From positions 146,077 to 210,076 of the forward strand of contig JAEWUV010000007.1 in NCBI GenBank assembly GCA_023396915.1: DNA of 64,000 bases. Direction: 5' to 3'. Positions 14,734 to 39,034 of this stretch are shown here, in pieces; the stretch's first letter is position 1; each line of letters opens with the position of its first letter. This DNA comes from Candidatus Parcubacteria bacterium (GTDB lineage: Bacteria > Patescibacteriota > Microgenomatia > UBA12405). The notes below the pieces were generated by a model that was given only the letters and a program-made list of their open reading frames with translations, did not search any database and was not told the DNA's origin. A program made the translations under genes and the position numbers.

Positions 14734-14753
14734 AATTTTTGATATGATTTTAT

Positions 14754-14811
14754 AAAAACTTGCGAAAACGTGCAATTTCTATATAAAAAAACTTGCGAAA
14801 ACGTGCAATTT
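14754..14811. repeat. two perfect 25-bp direct repeats (AAAAACTTGCGAAAACGTGCAATTT) with 33-bp period, 17 nt upstream of the ATPase start
   Basis: Copies at 14754-14778 and 14787-14811. Each contains a TTGC-N8-GCAA partial dyad. Confidence 0.8.
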
Positions 14812-14827
14812 TTACTAAAATTTTAAT

Positions 14828-31899: not shown

Positions 31900-33045
31900 T
31901 TAAAAACTAACGCCCTGCCCTGTCAAGGGAAGGGATGGGGAAGGGTTTGTCTTTTCCCAAGAAAACTCTTCTCGACCAAAATGACCATACTTGGCTGTTT
32001 GTTGATATATCGGCCTTTTTAAATCAAATTTTTCAATAATCCCTTTAACCGACAAATCCATTAAATTCCAAGCAAAATCCTCAATAATTTTGATATCTTT
32101 TTTAGCTGTTCTAAAAGTTTCGATTGATTTTACTATCGGTTCTCTTTGACCAATCACATAAGCTAGTTGTACTTCACATCTATCGGCCAAACCAGCCGCC
32201 ACCAAATTTTTAGCCAAAAATCTGGCCGCATAAGCTGCACTTCGATCTACTTTGCTCGGATCTTTTCCCGAAAAACAACCACCACCAATTCTACCCATTC
32301 CCCCGTAAGTATCTACTACAATTTTTCTACCAGTCACTCCGGTGTCACTTGCTGGCCCTCCGATTTCCCAAATTCCGGTTCCATTAAAAATTACCTTATC
32401 TTTAGGTATTTTAGTTAAATCATATTTTTCCAACACCGGCAAAACTGCCAAATTATATAAATCTTGCTTAACTTCTTCTGTTTTATTTTCTCTTCCAAAC
32501 GGTTTAGCTAAAACCACCGTATCAACCCCCATTACTTTTCCATTATCATAAATTACACTCACTTCTGCTTTACCATCAGGTCTTAGATAATTTAATTTTC
32601 CAAATTGCAGTTCATCCATTTTTCGGCATAACTCATGCGCCAAAACTATCGGCAACGGCATTAACTGAGGAGTCTCATTACAGGCATAACCAAACATCAT
32701 TCCTTGATCATCAGCTCCGTCATTATCCGCCCCAACAGCAATATCTTTTGACTGCTCGTGAACCAAAACTTCAATATCGGCATTTTCATCAAAATTAAAA
32801 ATTGAGCTTATAAAACCAATTTCTCTAATCTTTTTTTTGGCAATCTCTTTATAGTCCAAACTTTGTTTACAACTTACTTCACCCGCCATTACCACTTTAT
32901 TAACAGTCACCAAGGTTTCCAAGGCTACTCTTGATTCTTTGTCAACCATTAACGCTGCATCCAAAACAGCATCAGAGATTTGATCACAAATTTTATCCGG
33001 ATGACCACTACAAACCGACTCTGAAGTAAATAAAGAATAATTCAT
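31900..33045 (-). CDS. metK: S-adenosylmethionine synthetase, with C-terminal 12 aa (PSPSLPLTGQGVSF region) encoded by the 37-bp repeat
   Basis: SESVCSGHPDKICDQISDAVLDA, GGGCFSGKDPSKVDRSAAYAAR, AKYGHFGR..WEKT are canonical MetK motifs. Confidence 0.9.
   Translation of the reverse strand: MNYSLFTSESVCSGHPDKICDQISDAVLDAALMVDKESRVALETLVTVNKVVMAGEVSCKQSLDYKEIAKKKIREIGFISSIFNFDENADIEVLVHEQSKDIAVGADNDGADDQGMMFGYACNETPQLMPLPIVLAHELCRKMDELQFGKLNYLRPDGKAEVSVIYDNGKVMGVDTVVLAKPFGRENKTEEVKQDLYNLAVLPVLEKYDLTKIPKDKVIFNGTGIWEIGGPASDTGVTGRKIVVDTYGGMGRIGGGCFSGKDPSKVDRSAAYAARFLAKNLVAAGLADRCEVQLAYVIGQREPIVKSIETFRTAKKDIKIIEDFAWNLMDLSVKGIIEKFDLKRPIYQQTAKYGHFGREEFSWEKTNPSPSLPLTGQGVSF
31912..31948 (+). repeat. 37-bp GC-rich element copy 1 (GCCCTGCCCTGTCAAGGGAAGGGATGGGGAAGGGTTT), inside metK 3' end
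   Basis: Exact match to the consensus shared with copies at 34719, 35760 and 38560. Confidence 0.9.
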
Positions 33046-33998
33046 TATTTGTCTCCTAAACGACTTTTTCTAAAATCAGGAGTCAAAGAAAGCAAACCAC
33101 TAAGTAAAGCTACAATTATTCCCAATATTCCCGAAAAAGTTGAAGTTAATAACAGGCTCTCTGTTGAAGTCGCCAAACCGGTAAAAAATATTAAATATAA
33201 TTGCTCTCTAGCCCCAAATCCAGCAAAAGAAATTGGCAATGCCAAAATCATTGACATAATAGGTAAAAATATAAACACAGACCAAATTGACAAACCTGCC
33301 CCGAAGTACCAAGAAATAAACCAAATTTGTATAATCCAAAAAAATTCACTAACAAAACAAAGCAATAAAGATTTTAAAATTTGAATCTTGTTATCTTTAG
33401 AAACTAATTCAGCCACTGACTTTATTTTTTTTACCAACCTAAAATTCCATAGTTTTAAACTAGCTAATCTCCCTGAAAACAATAACAAGTAAAAAATCAA
33501 ACAAACCGTAAATAAGGCCAAAAAAGCCAATTTAATCCATAAAGGAATAAAACCTTTATCAACTCCTACTAAAAAAACCATTCCTGTTCCTACAAAAACA
33601 AACATTGACAATCCAATAAATCTATCTAAAAAAACAGAGGCTAAAATTTTTGACTTGGGTATATCTGGATATTTTTCATCAATAATCATCCATTTAAATA
33701 AATCCCCGGCGACTGAAGTATTAAAAAACAAACCATAAAAACCAGATACCAAGCTCGACTTAGTAAAAATTATAATATCCTTTAATTTTGGTTTTTTAGT
33801 CAATAACAAAGACCATCTAAAAGAAACCAAGGTAGTTGCTAATAATGACAAAAGAATATTAACCAAAATAAACCATAGTTTTATTTGCTGGAGTTGTTGC
33901 CACAAAGACCGAAGATCTACTTTTTTAAAAGCAAAATATATCAATACTAAAGACACCAATATTCTAAAAATTCGCGAAGTAAAAATTTTCTTTACCAT
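33045..33998 (-). CDS. UPF0104/YbhN-like (lysylphosphatidylglycerol-synthase TM-region-like) membrane protein
   Basis: 317 aa, 8 TM, N-terminal LVLIYFAFKKVDL...W pattern typical of this family. Confidence 0.45.
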   Translation of the reverse strand: MVKKIFTSRIFRILVSLVLIYFAFKKVDLRSLWQQLQQIKLWFILVNILLSLLATTLVSFRWSLLLTKKPKLKDIIIFTKSSLVSGFYGLFFNTSVAGDLFKWMIIDEKYPDIPKSKILASVFLDRFIGLSMFVFVGTGMVFLVGVDKGFIPLWIKLAFLALFTVCLIFYLLLFSGRLASLKLWNFRLVKKIKSVAELVSKDNKIQILKSLLLCFVSEFFWIIQIWFISWYFGAGLSIWSVFIFLPIMSMILALPISFAGFGAREQLYLIFFTGLATSTESLLLTSTFSGILGIIVALLSGLLSLTPDFRKSRLGDK

Positions 33999-34041
33999 AG
34001 ACTATTATTTAGCATAACACGTATAATTTCACCAGCACTAT

Positions 34042-35295
34042 ATGTCAAAAATTCTTTGTCTTAGTCATATTTTCCCCCCGGCAATAGATGGGGGATCTCG
34101 GGTCGTCTACAAACTCGGCCAATATTTTCAAAACCAAGGTAATCAAGTTTTATTTCTTTCTTCTGACTGTTCTTCCACCGACGATTTCACCAAAAAAGTT
34201 TCCCTTTTTAAGGGAAAAACCGGTTTATCCGGAAAGGGTTTCATCAAAATTCCTGTCTATCATCATCTCCGCCGCTTTTTAAAATTTATTAATCTTTTTA
34301 TTCCTCCAAAAACCTATCTCCATCAGCTACTCAAAGTTTTTCAAAAAGGACCTATTTTTAAATTTATACCTTTTATAAAAACCACTTTCAAAATTATAAA
34401 ATTTAAACCTGACTTAATTATCGCCGGACCACTCCCCACCACCATTATTCTCTACGCCAATTTTCTCAAAAAAATATCTACGATCTACAATCTACGACCT
34501 AAAATCTTACTTAATGCTTCTTTTCACCCCACCGACCACGACTTTCACTGTCTTCCTTTAATTAAAACCTTACAAAAAGCCGACTACCTTTGGACCCTGA
34601 CCCAATTCGAAACTAACTATTTTATAAAAAATTTTAATATTAATCCAAAAAAAATAATTCTTGCCGGCAACGGCATCGACCAATCATTTTTAAAAACTAA
34701 TAAACAAAAAAAAGTAGTGCCCTGCCCTGTCAAGGGAAGGGGTAGGGAAGGGTTTCGTCTTTTATTTATCGGCTCACTTTCCGCCCATAAAGGCCTTGAT
34801 ACCCTTATCACTTCTTTCTCTAACATCTATCGTCCAAAATCTAATATCTCGTTAACCATTGCCGGTCAAAAAACTCTCTACTACCCCCAAATCAAAAAAC
34901 AAATCCAAACACTTCCTCAAAATATTAAATCCAAAATAAAATTTATTTTTAATTTCTCCCAGAACAAATTAAGCCAAATTATCGACAACTGTGATATTTT
35001 AATTTTACCCTCAAAACAGGAAAGTTTTGGCTTAGTTATTATTGAGGCTTGGGCCAGACAAAAACCGGTTATTGTTAGCGATATTCCTTCACTTTCTGAA
35101 ATAACCCAAAAAGCCAATGGGGGTCTAACCTTCAAACTCAACAATTTTTCCAATCTAAATCAAAAAATATCAAAATTATTAAAGAACTCCAAACTTGCCA
35201 ATCAACTTGGCAAAAATGGTTTTAATTATGTTAAAAATAATTACACATGGAACATAGTCGGAAGAAAAATAAAAGAAGAAATCTCATTATATTAG
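34042..35295 (+). CDS. GT4 glycosyltransferase (carries repeat copy 2 at its inter-domain linker)
   Basis: MSKILCLSHIFPPAIDGGSRVV...; C-domain start LLFIGSLSAHKG; ...LPSKQESFGLVIIEAWA. Confidence 0.8.
   Translation: MSKILCLSHIFPPAIDGGSRVVYKLGQYFQNQGNQVLFLSSDCSSTDDFTKKVSLFKGKTGLSGKGFIKIPVYHHLRRFLKFINLFIPPKTYLHQLLKVFQKGPIFKFIPFIKTTFKIIKFKPDLIIAGPLPTTIILYANFLKKISTIYNLRPKILLNASFHPTDHDFHCLPLIKTLQKADYLWTLTQFETNYFIKNFNINPKKIILAGNGIDQSFLKTNKQKKVVPCPVKGRGREGFRLLFIGSLSAHKGLDTLITSFSNIYRPKSNISLTIAGQKTLYYPQIKKQIQTLPQNIKSKIKFIFNFSQNKLSQIIDNCDILILPSKQESFGLVIIEAWARQKPVIVSDIPSLSEITQKANGGLTFKLNNFSNLNQKISKLLKNSKLANQLGKNGFNYVKNNYTWNIVGRKIKEEISLY
34719..34755 (+). repeat. 37-bp GC-rich element copy 2 (translated VPCPVKGRGREGF)
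   Basis: GCCCTGCCCTGTCAAGGGAAGGGGTAGGGAAGGGTTT. Confidence 0.9.
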
Positions 35296-35723
35296 CTTTT
35301 ATTGGTTTGCTGATTATCATTGGTATAATTTCACTTTTGCTTAAAAAGCAAAATACCTTTCCAAAAAGTTTAGGCGTAGTCATCAAAAACAACGGCTACT
35401 ATCTAGAAGTGGCTCAAAGTAACCAAGAAACAAAAAAAGGGTTATCCAACAGAGACCAGCTTTGCCCTAATTGCGGTATGCTTTTTGTTTTTAACAAGGA
35501 AGATCAACATGATTTTTGGATGAAGGATACCCATATTCCGCTAGACATTATTTGGATTAATTCAAAAAAAGAAATTGTCAAAATTATTGTCTCCGCCAAA
35601 ACTGACTCTGAAACCATCTATAGCAACAAAGCTCCCGCTCAATACGTTATTGAACTGCCAGCTAACGAAAGTCTAAAACTCAACCTGCAAGTAGGGGACA
35701 CCATTCCTATCTTTGACCAGTGA
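35247..35723 (+). CDS. DUF192-domain protein
   Basis: LCPNCGMLFVF...DFWMKDTHIPLDIIWIN...YVIELPAN matches the DUF192 pattern. The listed start overlaps the upstream GT by 48 nt, so the true start may be downstream. Confidence 0.6.
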   Translation: MEHSRKKNKRRNLIILAFIGLLIIIGIISLLLKKQNTFPKSLGVVIKNNGYYLEVAQSNQETKKGLSNRDQLCPNCGMLFVFNKEDQHDFWMKDTHIPLDIIWINSKKEIVKIIVSAKTDSETIYSNKAPAQYVIELPANESLKLNLQVGDTIPIFDQ

Positions 35724-36775
35724 AAGTTAAACAAAAGTTTACTAACAAAAAGAAGAAGTGCCCTGCCCTGTCAAGGGAAGGGATAGGGAAGGGTTTATCT
35801 TTTTCTATAGTCATTCCCAATTACAACGGAAAAAATTTTTTACCGAATTGTCTTCAATCCCTACTTCAATCAATCAAAAATTGTCCTAAGTCAAATTTTG
35901 AAATTATCATTGTCGACAATGGTTCCACCGACAACAGCATTCAATTAGTCAAAGATTTTTTTACCAAACATAAACTCCAAAATCTAGAATCTAAAATCTT
36001 ACATTTAGAATCTAACACCGGTTTCGCTTTTGCCGTTAATCAGGGTATTAAAATTGCCAAATATCCATATGTTTGTGTTTGTAACAATGATTTAAAATTA
36101 AAAAACGATTGGTTTAAAATTATTAGCCAAGAAATCAAAAACAACCAAAAAAATCATAAAATTACTACTTTTTTTAGTACTGTTCTCAACTATAATGGCA
36201 CTAAATTTGAATCCCAAGGTTTTGAATTTAATTACTCCGGCAAATGCACCAACATCAGCAACGATAAAATATTTTTAGCATCTAGCATCTTGCATCTTAA
36301 ATCTAATTTAGTATGGGGTGCTCCTGCTGCCCTTATAGTTTATAAAAAGGAAATTATCCAAAAAATAGGCGCCTTTGATTCTGACTTTTTTGCCTACGAA
36401 GAAGATGTCGATTTAAACCTCAGACTTAAAAATTTCGGTTATCAAACCCTATATATTCCCCAAGCTATTTGTTACCATCTTGGCGGCGCCACCAGTAATA
36501 GAATGGGGAATTTTAGAAACAGAATGGATGCCAAAAATTGGATTTATATTATCATCAAAAACTACCCCGCTAAATTTATTTTTAAATATTTCTTTCCTAT
36601 CATAGAACAAAGGCTCAGAAATTTATCATCTTTAATCAAAAATACGTCAATTAAAAAACTTCCAAAAGACATTATCGCTACCTATGGCGAAGTCTTATTC
36701 AACCTACCCAAAATGTTCCAAAAACGCCGCTATACCCAAAAAATGTTAAAATCAAACCATGATTATTGGACTTGA
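35720..36775 (+). CDS. family 2 glycosyltransferase (GTG start; repeat copy 3 encoded in N-terminal extension)
   Basis: SFSIVIPNYNGKNFLPNCLQSL...IIVDNGSTDNS. Confidence 0.75.
   Translation: MKVKQKFTNKKKKCPALSREGIGKGLSFSIVIPNYNGKNFLPNCLQSLLQSIKNCPKSNFEIIIVDNGSTDNSIQLVKDFFTKHKLQNLESKILHLESNTGFAFAVNQGIKIAKYPYVCVCNNDLKLKNDWFKIISQEIKNNQKNHKITTFFSTVLNYNGTKFESQGFEFNYSGKCTNISNDKIFLASSILHLKSNLVWGAPAALIVYKKEIIQKIGAFDSDFFAYEEDVDLNLRLKNFGYQTLYIPQAICYHLGGATSNRMGNFRNRMDAKNWIYIIIKNYPAKFIFKYFFPIIEQRLRNLSSLIKNTSIKKLPKDIIATYGEVLFNLPKMFQKRRYTQKMLKSNHDYWT
35760..35796 (+). repeat. 37-bp GC-rich element copy 3 (translated CPALSREGIGKGL, a different frame)
   Basis: GCCCTGCCCTGTCAAGGGAAGGGATAGGGAAGGGTTT. Confidence 0.9.
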
Positions 36776-37892
36776 TATTTCCTCTGTTGCTTATCAGACA
36801 GGAGTAAGCAATTATACCCTTAACTTAGTCAAAAACTTAATATCTATTGATAAAACCAACCACTACAAACTTTTCTTTTCCTCTCTCAGGCTACCTCTTC
36901 CCTCAGAAATTATTAAACTTAAAAACAATCGTAACGTTACCATATACCATTTTCGACTTCCTCCAACTCTTTTACAAATTCTTTGGAATCAGCTGCGACT
37001 GTTTCCCGTCGAAATGTTTATCGGTAAATGTGATATTTTTCACACCTCAGACTGGACCCAGCCGCCAACATTAAAAGCCAAAACTATTACCACAATTCAC
37101 GATTTAACTCCGTTTCTTTTCCCTCAATGGCACCACCCCAAAGTCATCAACGCCCATCATAATAAAATGTATTGGGCTGCCAAAAAATGTACCAAGTTTA
37201 TTTGTGTATCGAAAAATACTAAAAATGATTTAATCAAACTTTTCCCAAAAATTGACGAATCTAAAACAGAAGTTATTTATGAAGCCGCCGAAAATAAATA
37301 TACCTTGTTTCATAAACTTCCATTAAAAACTCAACAACAAAAAATCTCCTTGATAAAAAAACAATATAACTTAAACGAGTTTATTCTGGCTCAAGGCACC
37401 AGAGAACCTCGTAAAAATCTAGACAGACTAGTCAAAGCTTTCCTTAAATTCAAACAGGAAAATCCAAAAAACAAAATTCAACTGGCCATTACCGGCAAAT
37501 ACGGTTGGGGAAAAGATATTTCTACCTCTGACTCCGATGTAAAAATTCTTGGATTTATCCCAGAAATTAACATGGTTGCTCTACATGCCGCCGCCACTTG
37601 TCTTGTTTATCCTTCCCTTTACGAAGGCTTTGGATTACCTATTATTAAATCCTTTACCGTCGGCGTTCCAGTTGTTACCAGCAACAACTCGTCTTTGGCA
37701 GAAATTTCTCAAGATTCCGCTATTTTAGTTAATCCAAATTCAATTAATAATATTCAAAATGCCATAAAAAAAATAATTTCTTCCCCAAAACTCAGAGACG
37801 AATTATCCCAAAAAGGACTTAAGGTGGCCAATAAATTCAGCTGGGAAAAAACCGCCCAACAAACTTTACAAGTTTACAATTCATTATGTTAA
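36759..37892 (+). CDS. GT4 glycosyltransferase
   Basis: MIIGLDISSVAYQTGVSNYTLNL...; C-terminal LYEGFGLPIIKSFTVGVPVVTSNNSSLAEI. Confidence 0.8.
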   Translation: MIIGLDISSVAYQTGVSNYTLNLVKNLISIDKTNHYKLFFSSLRLPLPSEIIKLKNNRNVTIYHFRLPPTLLQILWNQLRLFPVEMFIGKCDIFHTSDWTQPPTLKAKTITTIHDLTPFLFPQWHHPKVINAHHNKMYWAAKKCTKFICVSKNTKNDLIKLFPKIDESKTEVIYEAAENKYTLFHKLPLKTQQQKISLIKKQYNLNEFILAQGTREPRKNLDRLVKAFLKFKQENPKNKIQLAITGKYGWGKDISTSDSDVKILGFIPEINMVALHAAATCLVYPSLYEGFGLPIIKSFTVGVPVVTSNNSSLAEISQDSAILVNPNSINNIQNAIKKIISSPKLRDELSQKGLKVANKFSWEKTAQQTLQVYNSLC

Positions 37893-39034
37893 TTGGAATT
37901 GACGGCAACGAGGCTAATATTTCTCAAAGGGTCGGAGTCGGGCAATATGCCCTTAAATTACTTTGGCATTTGTATAAATTAGATAAAAAAAATAAATATT
38001 TAATTTATTTAAAAGAAAAACCCTCAAAAGAACTACCTCCAACCACCGAAAACTGGCAGTATCGTGTTTTTGGCCCTAGCAAAATGTGGACCAGACTAGC
38101 CTTACCTTTCCACCTGTTCACAGACAAAATTCCACTTGATTTATTCTTTTCTCCCAGTCATTACTCACCAAAATTTTCTCCCTTTCCCACCATCCCCACT
38201 ATTCATGATATCGGTTATCTTCAATTCCAAGACCAATTTACTAAAAAAGACCTCTACCAGCTAATCAATTGGACCAAAGAATCCATAAAAAAAGCCAGTC
38301 ATATTATTACTGTTTCCAAATTTTCCCAAAACGAAATTATCAAAACTTACAACGTTAACCCAAATAAAATAAGTATCGCTTATAACGGAGTAGAGGAACC
38401 ACCTAAAATAAATCCAAAAAACCAAGCTCAAATATTGTCTTCCTACAACCTCGTGTCTAAAAACTACTACCTATACTTAGGGACCTTAAAGCCTAATAAG
38501 AATATCCCATTTTTAATCAAAGGATATTCAAAATTCATTAAAAAATTCACTAATTCAACACCCTGCCCTGTCAAGGGAAGGGTTGGGGAAGGGTTTGGTC
38601 CTAAATTAGTTATTGCCGGCAAGAAAGGCTGGCTTTTTGATGAAATTTTTAAAACAGTCAAACAAGAAAAATTGGAGGATAAAGTTATTTTCACTGATTT
38701 TCTTGATAACTTACAAAAATGGACCTTATATCAAAACGCCATTGCTACAGTTTTACCCAGCACGTACGAAGGTTTTGGTATCCCAGCCATTGAATCTATG
38801 AAAACCGGTACACCAGTAATAGTTTCTGACATTCCGCCATTCAAAGAAGTGGTGGGGGATTGTGGCCTAATTATCGACCCCAACGATACTGCTGACTTAT
38901 GTCAAAAAATGATAAATATAAATAATCCTAATATTAGGCAAAAGTATTCACACCTAGGCAAAGTGCAAGCTGATAAATTCACTTGGAACTCTACCGCCAA
39001 ATCAGTCTTAAAAGTCTTTGAAAAATTCTGCTAA
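37886..39034 (+). CDS. GT4 glycosyltransferase (carries repeat copy 4 at its inter-domain linker)
   Basis: MLIGIDGNEANISQRVGVGQYAL...; KLVIAGKKG; TYEGFGIPAIESMKTGTPVIVSDIPPFKEV. Confidence 0.8.
   Translation: MLIGIDGNEANISQRVGVGQYALKLLWHLYKLDKKNKYLIYLKEKPSKELPPTTENWQYRVFGPSKMWTRLALPFHLFTDKIPLDLFFSPSHYSPKFSPFPTIPTIHDIGYLQFQDQFTKKDLYQLINWTKESIKKASHIITVSKFSQNEIIKTYNVNPNKISIAYNGVEEPPKINPKNQAQILSSYNLVSKNYYLYLGTLKPNKNIPFLIKGYSKFIKKFTNSTPCPVKGRVGEGFGPKLVIAGKKGWLFDEIFKTVKQEKLEDKVIFTDFLDNLQKWTLYQNAIATVLPSTYEGFGIPAIESMKTGTPVIVSDIPPFKEVVGDCGLIIDPNDTADLCQKMININNPNIRQKYSHLGKVQADKFTWNSTAKSVLKVFEKFC
38560..38596 (+). repeat. 37-bp GC-rich element copy 4 (translated TPCPVKGRVGEGF; first base A instead of G)
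   Basis: ACCCTGCCCTGTCAAGGGAAGGGTTGGGGAAGGGTTT. Confidence 0.9.

Follow-up and report, generated by a model that had tools for sequence, protein, structure and literature searches.

The stretch analysed here (the window) comprises 64,000 nucleotides of a Candidatus Parcubacteria bacterium (GenBank assembly GCA_023396915.1, contig JAEWUV010000007.1, positions 146,077 to 210,076) and carries, inside four protein-coding genes, near-identical copies of a short GC-rich repeat. The repeat unit is 36 nt long, a multiple of three, with the layout CCCTGCCCT-GTCA-AGGGAAGGG-NNN-GGGAAGGG-TTT, in which a pyrimidine arm is followed by a purine arm and a mirror purine arm. We consider it likely that this non-autonomous element is a Shapirobacteria lineage of the intrastrand-triplex repeats of the BoxC/PIT/TMECO type (PIT, potential intrastrand triplex), with DUF559 nucleases as its likeliest partner. 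The host genes, the copies and two spurious antisense open reading frames (ORFs) are arranged as follows, GT standing for glycosyltransferase:

31900..33045, minus strand: metK (S-adenosylmethionine synthetase), host of copy 1; the protein ends ...NPSPSLPLTGQGVSF*
31913..31948, plus strand: copy 1, spacer ATG; antisense within the metK 3' end
34042..35295, plus strand: GT4a (Glycos_transf_1 / GT4), host of copy 2; contains VPCPVKGRGREGF
34199..34241, plus strand: fifth, diverged copy of the long-linker type; GT4a residues 53-67, in frame
34617..34826, minus strand: spurious antisense ORF, kept open by copy 2
34720..34755, plus strand: copy 2, spacer GTA; sense, frame 0, in GT4a (PCPVKGRGREGF)
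35720..36775, plus strand: GT2, host of copy 3; contains CPALSREGIGKGL
35761..35796, plus strand: copy 3, spacer ATA; sense, frame 2, in the N-terminal extension of GT2 (PALSREGIGKGL)
37886..39034, plus strand: GT4c, host of copy 4; contains TPCPVKGRVGEGF
38467..38694, minus strand: spurious antisense ORF, kept open by copy 4
38561..38596, plus strand: copy 4, spacer TTG; sense, frame 0, in the inter-domain loop of GT4c (PCPVKGRVGEGF)

An earlier, sequence-only reading had described four near-identical copies on one strand, each inside an ORF, and this description stood. A fuzzy search allowing up to three mismatches returned four consensus matches, all on the plus strand (31912-31948, 34719-34755, 35760-35796 and 38560-38596), with a chance expectation of 0 and no match in any of 100 dinucleotide-preserving shuffles of the window; the host ORFs, the peptides translated from all four copies and both antisense ORFs were recovered as described, and the unit has a stop codon in only one of its six frames. 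Other parts of the reading had to be amended. Differences between copies 1-4, said to be confined to the 3-nt spacer (ATG, GTA, ATA or TTG), extend to base 1, which is G or A, and the GC contrast is real, with the 37-mer measuring 62% against 33-36% in the surrounding region, not about 65% against about 30%. The claim that the window holds no other copies is correct for canonical ones, of which none was found with up to seven mismatches; the diverged fifth copy at 34199-34241 had been overlooked.

Copy 1 is the source of the last ~14 codons of MetK (NPSPSLPLTGQGVSF), where the ancestral stop has been replaced. Copy 2 lies between the two Rossmann-like halves of GT4a and shares its reading frame with copy 4, and copy 3 belongs to a GT2 gene whose GTG start overlaps the stop of the DUF192 gene upstream. 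The sequence of the fifth copy runs TTTCCCTT / TTT / AAGGGAAA / hairpin linker AACCGGTTTATCCGG / AAAGGGTT and encodes VSLFKGKTGLSGKGF in GT4a, with the triplex code described below still satisfied; at the same site, three GT4a orthologues (fetched loci L081, L115 and L034) hold a canonical copy (TPCPVKGRVGEGF). Because only a relaxed scanner finds it (0-1 matches per window in shuffles), the fifth copy is less certain than copies 1-4, which are exactly what a generic triplex scanner recovers from the window.

Inserted DNA at orthologous sites

The syntenic gene cluster is present in eight fetched loci at 55-85% protein identity, and all four window sites are polymorphic among them, the element being present, decayed or absent. 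The alignment with orthologues that had been proposed as a check thus gave, at all four sites, orthologues without the insert, with it or with a decayed form of it. The metK tail is found in the window and in L115 and is absent from L081 and L084; in the protein database it occurs in 3 of the 120 closest orthologues and is missing from 117, the closest named relatives of this MetK being Candidatus Shapirobacteria of the Candidate Phyla Radiation (CPR). At the copy 2 site of GT4a the element has decayed with length unchanged in L081 and L115 (~72% identity, by eye), an internal expansion is seen in L034, and L083 has no element. The copy 3 site in GT2 is shared only with L083, the most distant orthologue, which there holds another subfamily (CCCCGCCCT...AGGGAGGGG TTT GGGGAGGG), and the entire N-terminal extension is missing from five other orthologues. 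Copy 4 in GT4c is base-for-base identical in five genomes (the window, L018, L103, L084 and L064) with diverged flanking codons; its site is decayed in L034 and clean and empty in L115 and L083.

The same variability is seen at single host sites farther afield. One loop of TsaD holds the element in two frames in different species, and another host site holds it in opposite orientations in different species. Together with the polymorphic sites and the use of five frames (see below), these observations bear out the claim that the repeat is a mobile or recombinogenic insertion at the DNA level, read in several frames, and not a peptide motif. The insertions are recurrent and independent, filtered by what the protein tolerates.

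Three-arm architecture

The three arms are illustrated by copy 2, on the plus strand:

34720-34728: pyrimidine arm
34729-34732: loop GTCA
34733-34741: purine arm
34742-34744: spacer
34745-34752: mirror purine arm
34753-34755: TTT

Subfamilies are distinguished by their internal dinucleotides, TG/AA/AA in 85 contexts, CG/AG/GA in 22, TC/GA/AG in 13, CA/AG/GA in 11, CG/AG/GT in 7 and CT/AG/GT in 4. The informative parts are the free positions and the bystander variants, the G3 and C3 blocks having been set by the search patterns. At the free positions, arms 1 and 2 show the Watson-Crick covariation of a hairpin (28 distinct sequences have UA and 22 have CG at pair 4-19), with a score attained by none of 500 shuffles, and an alternative hairpin of the C-arm with the third arm showed no covariation. 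The third arm mirrors the second: in 103 of 108 free cells a G faces G, or an A or T faces A, as compared with a maximum of 81 of 108 in 2,000 shuffles; a direct-repeat reading of the two G-arms fits only 42 of 108 cells. A larger set was formed by every occurrence of the 12-nt core CCCTGTCAAGGG in the 1.16 Mb of DNA fetched, 237 in number for an estimated chance expectation of ~0.14; it comprises 135 element types. Expressed in triads, 412 of 417 C-G pairs in this set have G as the third base, and 121 of 130 T-A pairs have A or T. The mirror register is obeyed at 98% in strict copies and 88% in other variants and falls to 26-50% after a shift of 1-2 nt.

The variants point in the same direction. 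In some, all three arms are longer by one nucleotide together (CCCTTGCCCT / AGGGAAAGGG / GGGATAGGG), and in others a stem-loop of 13-25 nt takes the place of the 3-nt spacer with the mirror arm kept; most copies have a G.A mismatch at pair 5-18. The arms thus follow the antiparallel purine-motif triplex code C-G*G, T-A*A, T-A*T, and it can be rationalized that the element would fold as an intrastrand triplex when single-stranded. Of the imperfect hairpin plus tandem GGGAAGGG that had been described from the sequence, the hairpin is supported by covariation, and the supposed tandem is a mirror repeat that obeys the triplex code.

Distribution and reading frames

A search of other genomes for the element, suggested with the original description, was productive. 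An exact-pattern scan with one genome per species yielded 39 loci and a relaxed pattern in metagenomes at least 120 loci; combined, the two scans gave 156 unique flank contexts among the matches listed, on which the context counts are based. The exact-pattern loci lie in metagenome-assembled genomes (MAGs) of Shapirobacteria and in low-GC MAGs labelled 'Gammaproteobacteria/Pseudomonadales', and genomes hold roughly 1-10 exact copies. The latter MAGs (L004-L041; CAYUUU01, CAYOPC01, CAZCYZ01, CAYRYK01 and others), titled 'uncultured Gammaproteobacteria/Pseudomonadales bacterium', have a GC content of 26-48%, and as at least L018 among them is syntenic with the window at 71-77% protein identity, these titles look wrong.

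Among the matches listed, 116 of the 156 contexts (74%) lie within ORFs of at least 120 aa. In 47 of these the element is read in sense (frames 0, 1 and 2 in 19, 4 and 24 cases) and in 69 in antisense (two frames, 39 and 30), so that all five open frames are in use. Insert positions are distributed evenly along the host proteins, which form 58 sequence clusters and span 97 Pfam families, mostly housekeeping, including TsaD, QueH, class I aminoacyl-tRNA synthetases, ribonucleotide reductase, radical-SAM enzymes, MetK, VirB4/TraG-like ATPases and glycosyltransferases; with this spread of families, an element specific to glycosyltransferases was rejected. Presence and absence, decay, recurrent insertions and subfamilies thus document an element that spreads both inside genomes and from one related genome to another, and that decays and disappears. 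Because it is 3n long and free of stop codons in five of six frames, it survives inside genes.

The two bases that precede strict copies are non-random, with C (76) or T (62) but never G at position -2 and T (92) or G (38) at position -1; the trinucleotide at the 5' end covaries with the spacer (AAG, for instance, accompanies TTT in 10 contexts), and the pair defines subfamilies. The mobile unit probably extends 2-3 nt beyond the 36 nt. Two unusual arrangements were met in passing. At 4950-5103 of L120, at least three head-to-tail 51-nt units, each the 36-nt element plus TTCCCCTTTGCTTTC, run up to the contig end as a tandem array. In high-GC contigs (L098, L114, L143 and L150, GC 0.59-0.63), the TC/GA/AG subfamily occurs as REPIN-like inverted doublets ~25 nt apart, mostly intergenic and without clear skew bias.

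Replication strand

In 136 of the 144 unique contexts that have 1.5 kb or more of flanking sequence, the G-rich strand of the element coincides with the locally C-rich strand, on which GC skew is negative. After related contexts were collapsed into 75 independent clusters, 69 were negative, 3 positive and 2 mixed (p = 2.6e-17). The direction of the host gene does not account for this: negative skew was found for 39 sense and 61 antisense contexts and positive skew for 5 sense and 2 antisense ones, with gene strands divided ~50/50 in element-bearing genomes. The window itself (1-64000) has a uniformly negative skew of -0.09 to -0.41 per 2 kb with genes ~50/50 by strand, and its skew is therefore strong and independent of gene strand. 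Orientation of the element is thus tied to the replication strand, whatever the gene strand. By the usual skew convention, the structured G-strand corresponds to the leading-strand template and the C-strand to the exposed lagging-strand template.

DUF559 genes beside the repeats

Among 1,310 ORFs within 1.5 kb of copies, DUF559 (PF04480), a predicted Vsr-like PD-(D/E)XK nuclease, is the only non-orthologous family that recurs right at the element, and no HUH transposase neighbour recurs among these ORFs. In the element-selected loci, 8 of 10 DUF559 genes lie within about 100 bp of a copy; the family recurs at the element in 8 loci, in each case no more than 150 bp from a copy. Eleven DUF559 loci were sampled by protein similarity alone, then fetched and scanned; in 10 of the 11, class II triplex motifs, lineage-specific in sequence, abut the DUF559 gene, as compared with 0 motifs after shuffling of the seven loci run. 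The usual arrangement is an inverted motif pair, one within ~15 nt of the start and the other overlapping the stop. The loci with motifs are the following:

L163: Shapirobacteria
L165, L167: related CPR-type contigs
L170: E. coli K-12 ycjD; the only motif in 22 kb, ~170 nt downstream
L171: Vibrio
L172, L173: Nitrospirota
L175: Brocadiales
L176: 66%-GC contig
L177: a further locus

In the exception, L168 (3001-3429), the DUF559 gene lacks flanking triplex motifs and lies between hsdS and hsdM in a type I restriction-modification operon, a context which suggests that DUF559 proteins have more than one genomic lifestyle. At the E. coli locus (L170, NC_000913.3 1351040-1351420), a ~50-nt duplicate of the ycjD 3' end (GAGACGGTGCTGGAGAATATT...) lies downstream, followed by the TMECO. 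Part of a C-rich arm overlaps the stop codon of ycjD itself, whose 3' region gives the impression of a hot spot for rearrangement.

The distribution of ycjD within E. coli is of interest in this context. Phylogroups A, B1 and C have the gene, in place of which eefRABCD is found in B2 and others (PMC12817139), and TMECO counts are 13-30 in A/B1/C strains, 1-2 in B2 and 6-15 in D/E/F (Holder supplement, PMC4666352). TMECO number thus correlates with ycjD presence in the predicted direction, with phylogeny as a confounder. A literature search found no paper connecting ycjD or DUF559 with BoxC or triplex repeats.

Relation to known repeat families

TMECO, also named BoxC or PIT, has the pattern CCCTCNCCC-N3-6-GGGNGAGGG-N3-GGGNGAGGG (Holder et al. 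2015, PMC4666352), with 3,610 copies in 262 proteobacterial genomes. Its oligonucleotides form a stable triplex in vitro with a melting temperature (Tm) of 70-82 °C, as followed by circular dichroism and nuclear magnetic resonance (NMR), and purine-motif triplexes cannot form in RNA (PMC4666352). In E. coli the repeats are always intergenic, without strand bias and unlinked to mobile elements or gene function; they often form heterotypic inverted pairs and are associated with local genome instability (PMC4666352). The element described here agrees with BoxC/PIT/TMECO (Hoyne et al. 2000; PMC4666352) in its pyrimidine/purine/purine blocks on one strand with class II triads and in its geometry of ~9-nt stems, loops of 3-6 and 3 nt and at most one mismatched triplet, here 9/4/9/3/8+T. 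In both, TTA or CCG is common as the 3-nt loop and one mismatched triplet is frequent; both form heterotypic inverted pairs, vary in copy number among close relatives, occupy structurally unstable loci and include a DUF559 gene with an adjacent copy, ycjD in the case of E. coli K-12. Because TMECO has exactly this architecture, the element represents a new sequence lineage of a known structural class and not a new class. The TMECO sequence pattern itself is not that of the window copies, which read CCCTGCCCT / AGGGAAGGG / GGGAAGGG, and only the high-GC TC/GA/AG subfamily comes close to it. The element further differs in residing in CPR bacteria with 74% of its contexts in ORFs, whereas the E. 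coli repeats are all intergenic, in its strong replication-strand bias (69/75 clusters), where none is reported for E. coli, and in its long-linker variants, which have a stem-loop instead of the 3-nt loop.

A resemblance to the Rickettsia palindromic elements (RPEs) had been pointed out from the sequence. RPEs, the subject of Ogata et al. in 2000 and 2002, are reportedly inserted in frame into many unrelated, often essential protein genes, where they are said to be tolerated as extra surface peptide at sites polymorphic among relatives; they reportedly measure roughly 100-150 bp and fall into unrelated sequence families of alphaproteobacterial endosymbionts. The parallel is valid as a way of working, namely in-frame insertion into diverse protein genes of a reduced genome with the ORF left intact. 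It does not extend to membership, the present element being 36 nt long, of triplex architecture and from Shapirobacteria; this separation from the 100-150-bp Rickettsia families is made by description only. RPEs are not known to show a triplex or mirror architecture or a strand bias, nor to be accompanied by a nuclease gene.

Eukaryotic H-DNA and mirror-repeat motifs are likewise mirror repeats capable of R*R-Y triads and linked to instability and polymerase stalling; they differ in being long homopurine tracts, whereas here all three arms lie on one strand, as a double fold-back of single-stranded DNA, in a discrete dispersed family of 36-nt repeats. The element resembles RPEs as an in-frame selfish insertion and REP sequences in its associated nuclease, and structurally it belongs with BoxC/PIT/TMECO. 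Polar signals such as JUMPstart/ops-like sequences, uptake sequences, Chi or KOPS-like motifs were rejected, the element being too long, too rare and intragenic; its resemblance to GGGNAGGG does not make it a KOPS, as the copies lie on the strand opposite to the KOPS expectation. Neither CRISPR-like repeats nor integron attC sites fit the spacing and context. A literature search retrieved no match for the element sequence and no report of such repeats in CPR or inside genes.

Alternative explanations

The best-surviving alternative, which we still regard as unlikely, holds that the copies are not selfish and that the host retains them because recombination at these sites would shuffle or delete glycosyltransferase modules and so vary the surface polysaccharide. 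All five window copies are direct and lie within 6.7 kb of a polysaccharide cluster, and copies 2 and 4 occupy the matching inter-domain position and frame of two GT4 genes. Recombination between direct copies has occurred in a related genome: L164 and L163 differ by a 2.2-kb segment with one gene, which in L164 is missing precisely from between two direct copies, a difference that can be read either as a deletion or as a cassette insertion between copies. The loci of TMECO are unstable in E. coli, too (PMC4666352). As copies 2 and 4 share frame and position, a deletion between them would give an in-frame GT4 chimera, but no chimeric GT4 variant was observed; furthermore, the hosts belong to 97 mostly housekeeping Pfam families, glycosyltransferases accounting for only 6-9 of 110. 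This explanation is compatible with a selfish triplex repeat, as a side effect rather than an alternative. The gene between the two direct 39-nt copies of L163 (3395-5670), absent from L164, codes for a TPR-like protein of 684 aa.

It is distinctly improbable that the element is an ordinary hairpin of the REP/REPIN or IS200/IS605 type, moved as single-stranded DNA by an HUH (Y1) transposase. Such a reading would account for a short imperfect palindrome with strong replication-strand bias, for the inverted doublets in high-GC contigs and for the single small nuclease gene between inverted copies. The likeness to REP/REPIN-RAYT systems (Bertels and Rainey 2011, PMC3116915; Nunvar et al. 2010; PMC3733652) comprises a dispersed short structured repeat that occurs as singlets and inverted doublets, with an abundance that tracks the gene between the inverted copies. 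However, the GTAG/CGTC head that adjoins the REP palindrome (PMC3733652) is absent, the 5' flank here reading (C/T)(T/G) and then CCC; the flanked gene is DUF559/PF04480, Vsr-like PD-(D/E)XK, instead of a Y1/HUH RAYT; and the element is an intragenic three-arm triplex motif rather than a simple hairpin. With IS200/IS605 it has in common an orientation tied to replication direction, a polarity inferred from skew only, but no cluster of TnpA (Y1) or TnpB occurs among the 1,310 neighbouring ORFs, and across 1.07 Mb of loci the 1.5 kb around copies show no recurrent transposase-like family. In addition, the structured strand lies on the C-rich (lagging) side, opposite to the IS608 rule under the usual skew convention.

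A comparably small chance is given to an intramolecular G-quadruplex (G3N2G3N3G3N2G3) as the functional structure, with the C-rich arm as its competitor. The G-quadruplex at pilE, which drives recombination, offers a model, and four G3 tracts are present in all four window copies; according to Holder et al., G-quadruplex formation by G-rich triplex motifs is conceivable in principle (PMC4666352). Four tracts are, however, not a family-wide trait: 30 of the 135 element types have only two or three and keep the mirror arm, for which reason the G-quadruplex is not the conserved feature. It also leaves unexplained the Watson-Crick covariation of the C-arm, the mirror code of A/T versus G and the concerted +1 arms, and for TMECO it was excluded by NMR (PMC4666352).

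A role in RNA, as terminator, attenuator or structured mRNA motif, is very improbable. A GC-rich hairpin followed by TTT with an RNA fold of about -17 to -21 kcal/mol might suggest it, but folding, which had been proposed as a check of the hairpin, gave energies no better than those of shuffles (z from -0.8 to -2.1), and a plain RNA hairpin is therefore not the signal. Copies lie inside essential ORFs, in sense in 47 and in antisense in 69 while their orientation tracks GC skew, and purine-motif triplexes do not form in RNA (PMC4666352). No Rfam family reached its gathering threshold anywhere in the window, none of relevance matched 31.5-39 kb at E up to 10, and a search for tRNA and tmRNA genes was negative.

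A conserved peptide motif, for which one could cite PCPVKGR.GEGF as common to two GT4 proteins, or an assembly artefact can practically be dismissed, given the five reading frames in use, DNA that is identical despite diverged flanks, orthologues that lack the element, and an identical MetK with its tail on 16 contigs of independent assemblies, one a 906,714-bp scaffold that is evidently the source of the window, to which may be added a Logan contig that terminates within copy 4, as expected for a dispersed repeat.

Proposed mechanism

We infer a triplex fold of this sequence, a nuclease acting on it and an insertion chemistry, along the following lines. The G-rich strand, when single-stranded, would form a 9-bp hairpin CCCTGCCCT/GTCA/AGGGAAGGG, usually with one G.A mismatch, and the 3' GGGAAGGG(T) would then double back along the purine arm, antiparallel to it, and supply the third strand of a purine-motif triple helix (C-G*G, T-A*A or T-A*T). 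The likely partner would be a DUF559 endonuclease (YcjD-like, Vsr-like PD-(D/E)XK) acting on the element, its gene being flanked by inverted copies as a RAYT gene is by REPs; the association of DUF559 genes with the repeats is itself observed. Orientation might reflect insertion via single-stranded DNA at the replication fork, or selection against copies with the G-strand on the exposed lagging-strand template. The ORFs of essential host genes are intact, and translation through the element would produce a 12-residue Gly/Pro/Ser-rich loop at termini and inter-domain loops. By recombination, which direct copies have undergone in a related genome, copies 2 and 4 could delete or exchange glycosyltransferase modules.

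Several points weigh against this picture. Identical copies within diverged flanks could mean gene conversion or selection and not recent transposition, and neither a target-site duplication nor exact element ends can be defined. The C3 and G3 blocks were preset by the search patterns, the copies are phylogenetically related, and for this sequence the triplex is deduced from covariation and the analogy with TMECO. No DUF559 gene lies within the 64-kb window, flanking copies come in two arrangements (+/- and -/+) with one pair direct (L124), and the relation of ycjD to TMECO counts rests on few phylogroups and is confounded by phylogeny. We know of no insertion chemistry of DUF559 proteins. The assignment of leading and lagging strand from GC skew is a convention, and Holder et al. 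saw neither strand bias nor a link to mobile elements in E. coli (PMC4666352).

A further repeat in the window

At 14750-14814, two tandem 31-33-nt copies of (A)AAAACTTGCGAAAACGTGCAATTT occur 33 bp apart, just upstream of an ORF starting near 14819; the pair resembles a duplicated operator or promoter element.

Implications

BoxC/PIT/TMECO repeats have been known since the 1990s, and the literature searched assigns them neither a function nor a mechanism of spread nor a partner protein. As far as found, the intragenic lifestyle, the replication-strand rule and a DUF559 association that reaches E. coli look new. The covariation of natural variants makes a case for selection maintaining the three-arm triplex register, and the replication-strand rule suggests that the state that matters is single-stranded DNA at the fork. 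With DUF559, including YcjD, as a candidate cognate nuclease, the question becomes experimentally tractable in E. coli. For the annotation of metagenome-assembled CPR genomes, the elements matter as causes of spurious antisense ORFs, extra peptide loops and contig breaks.

A broader proposal, put forward tentatively and judged almost as plausible as its opposite, is that DUF559/YcjD nucleases may be dedicated partners of triplex repeats across bacteria, mobilising or maintaining them. If true, this would be an association of the REPIN-RAYT kind based on recognition of a folded DNA triple helix, possibly via the conserved mismatched triplet, and it would provide a role both for the BoxC/TMECO repeats and for the widespread domain DUF559. 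In the CPR, where the element adds an independent second case to the RPE phenomenon, in a different group with reduced genomes, the system would then have gone further and repeats would have colonised coding sequence, with a DNA triple-helix motif written into the proteome.

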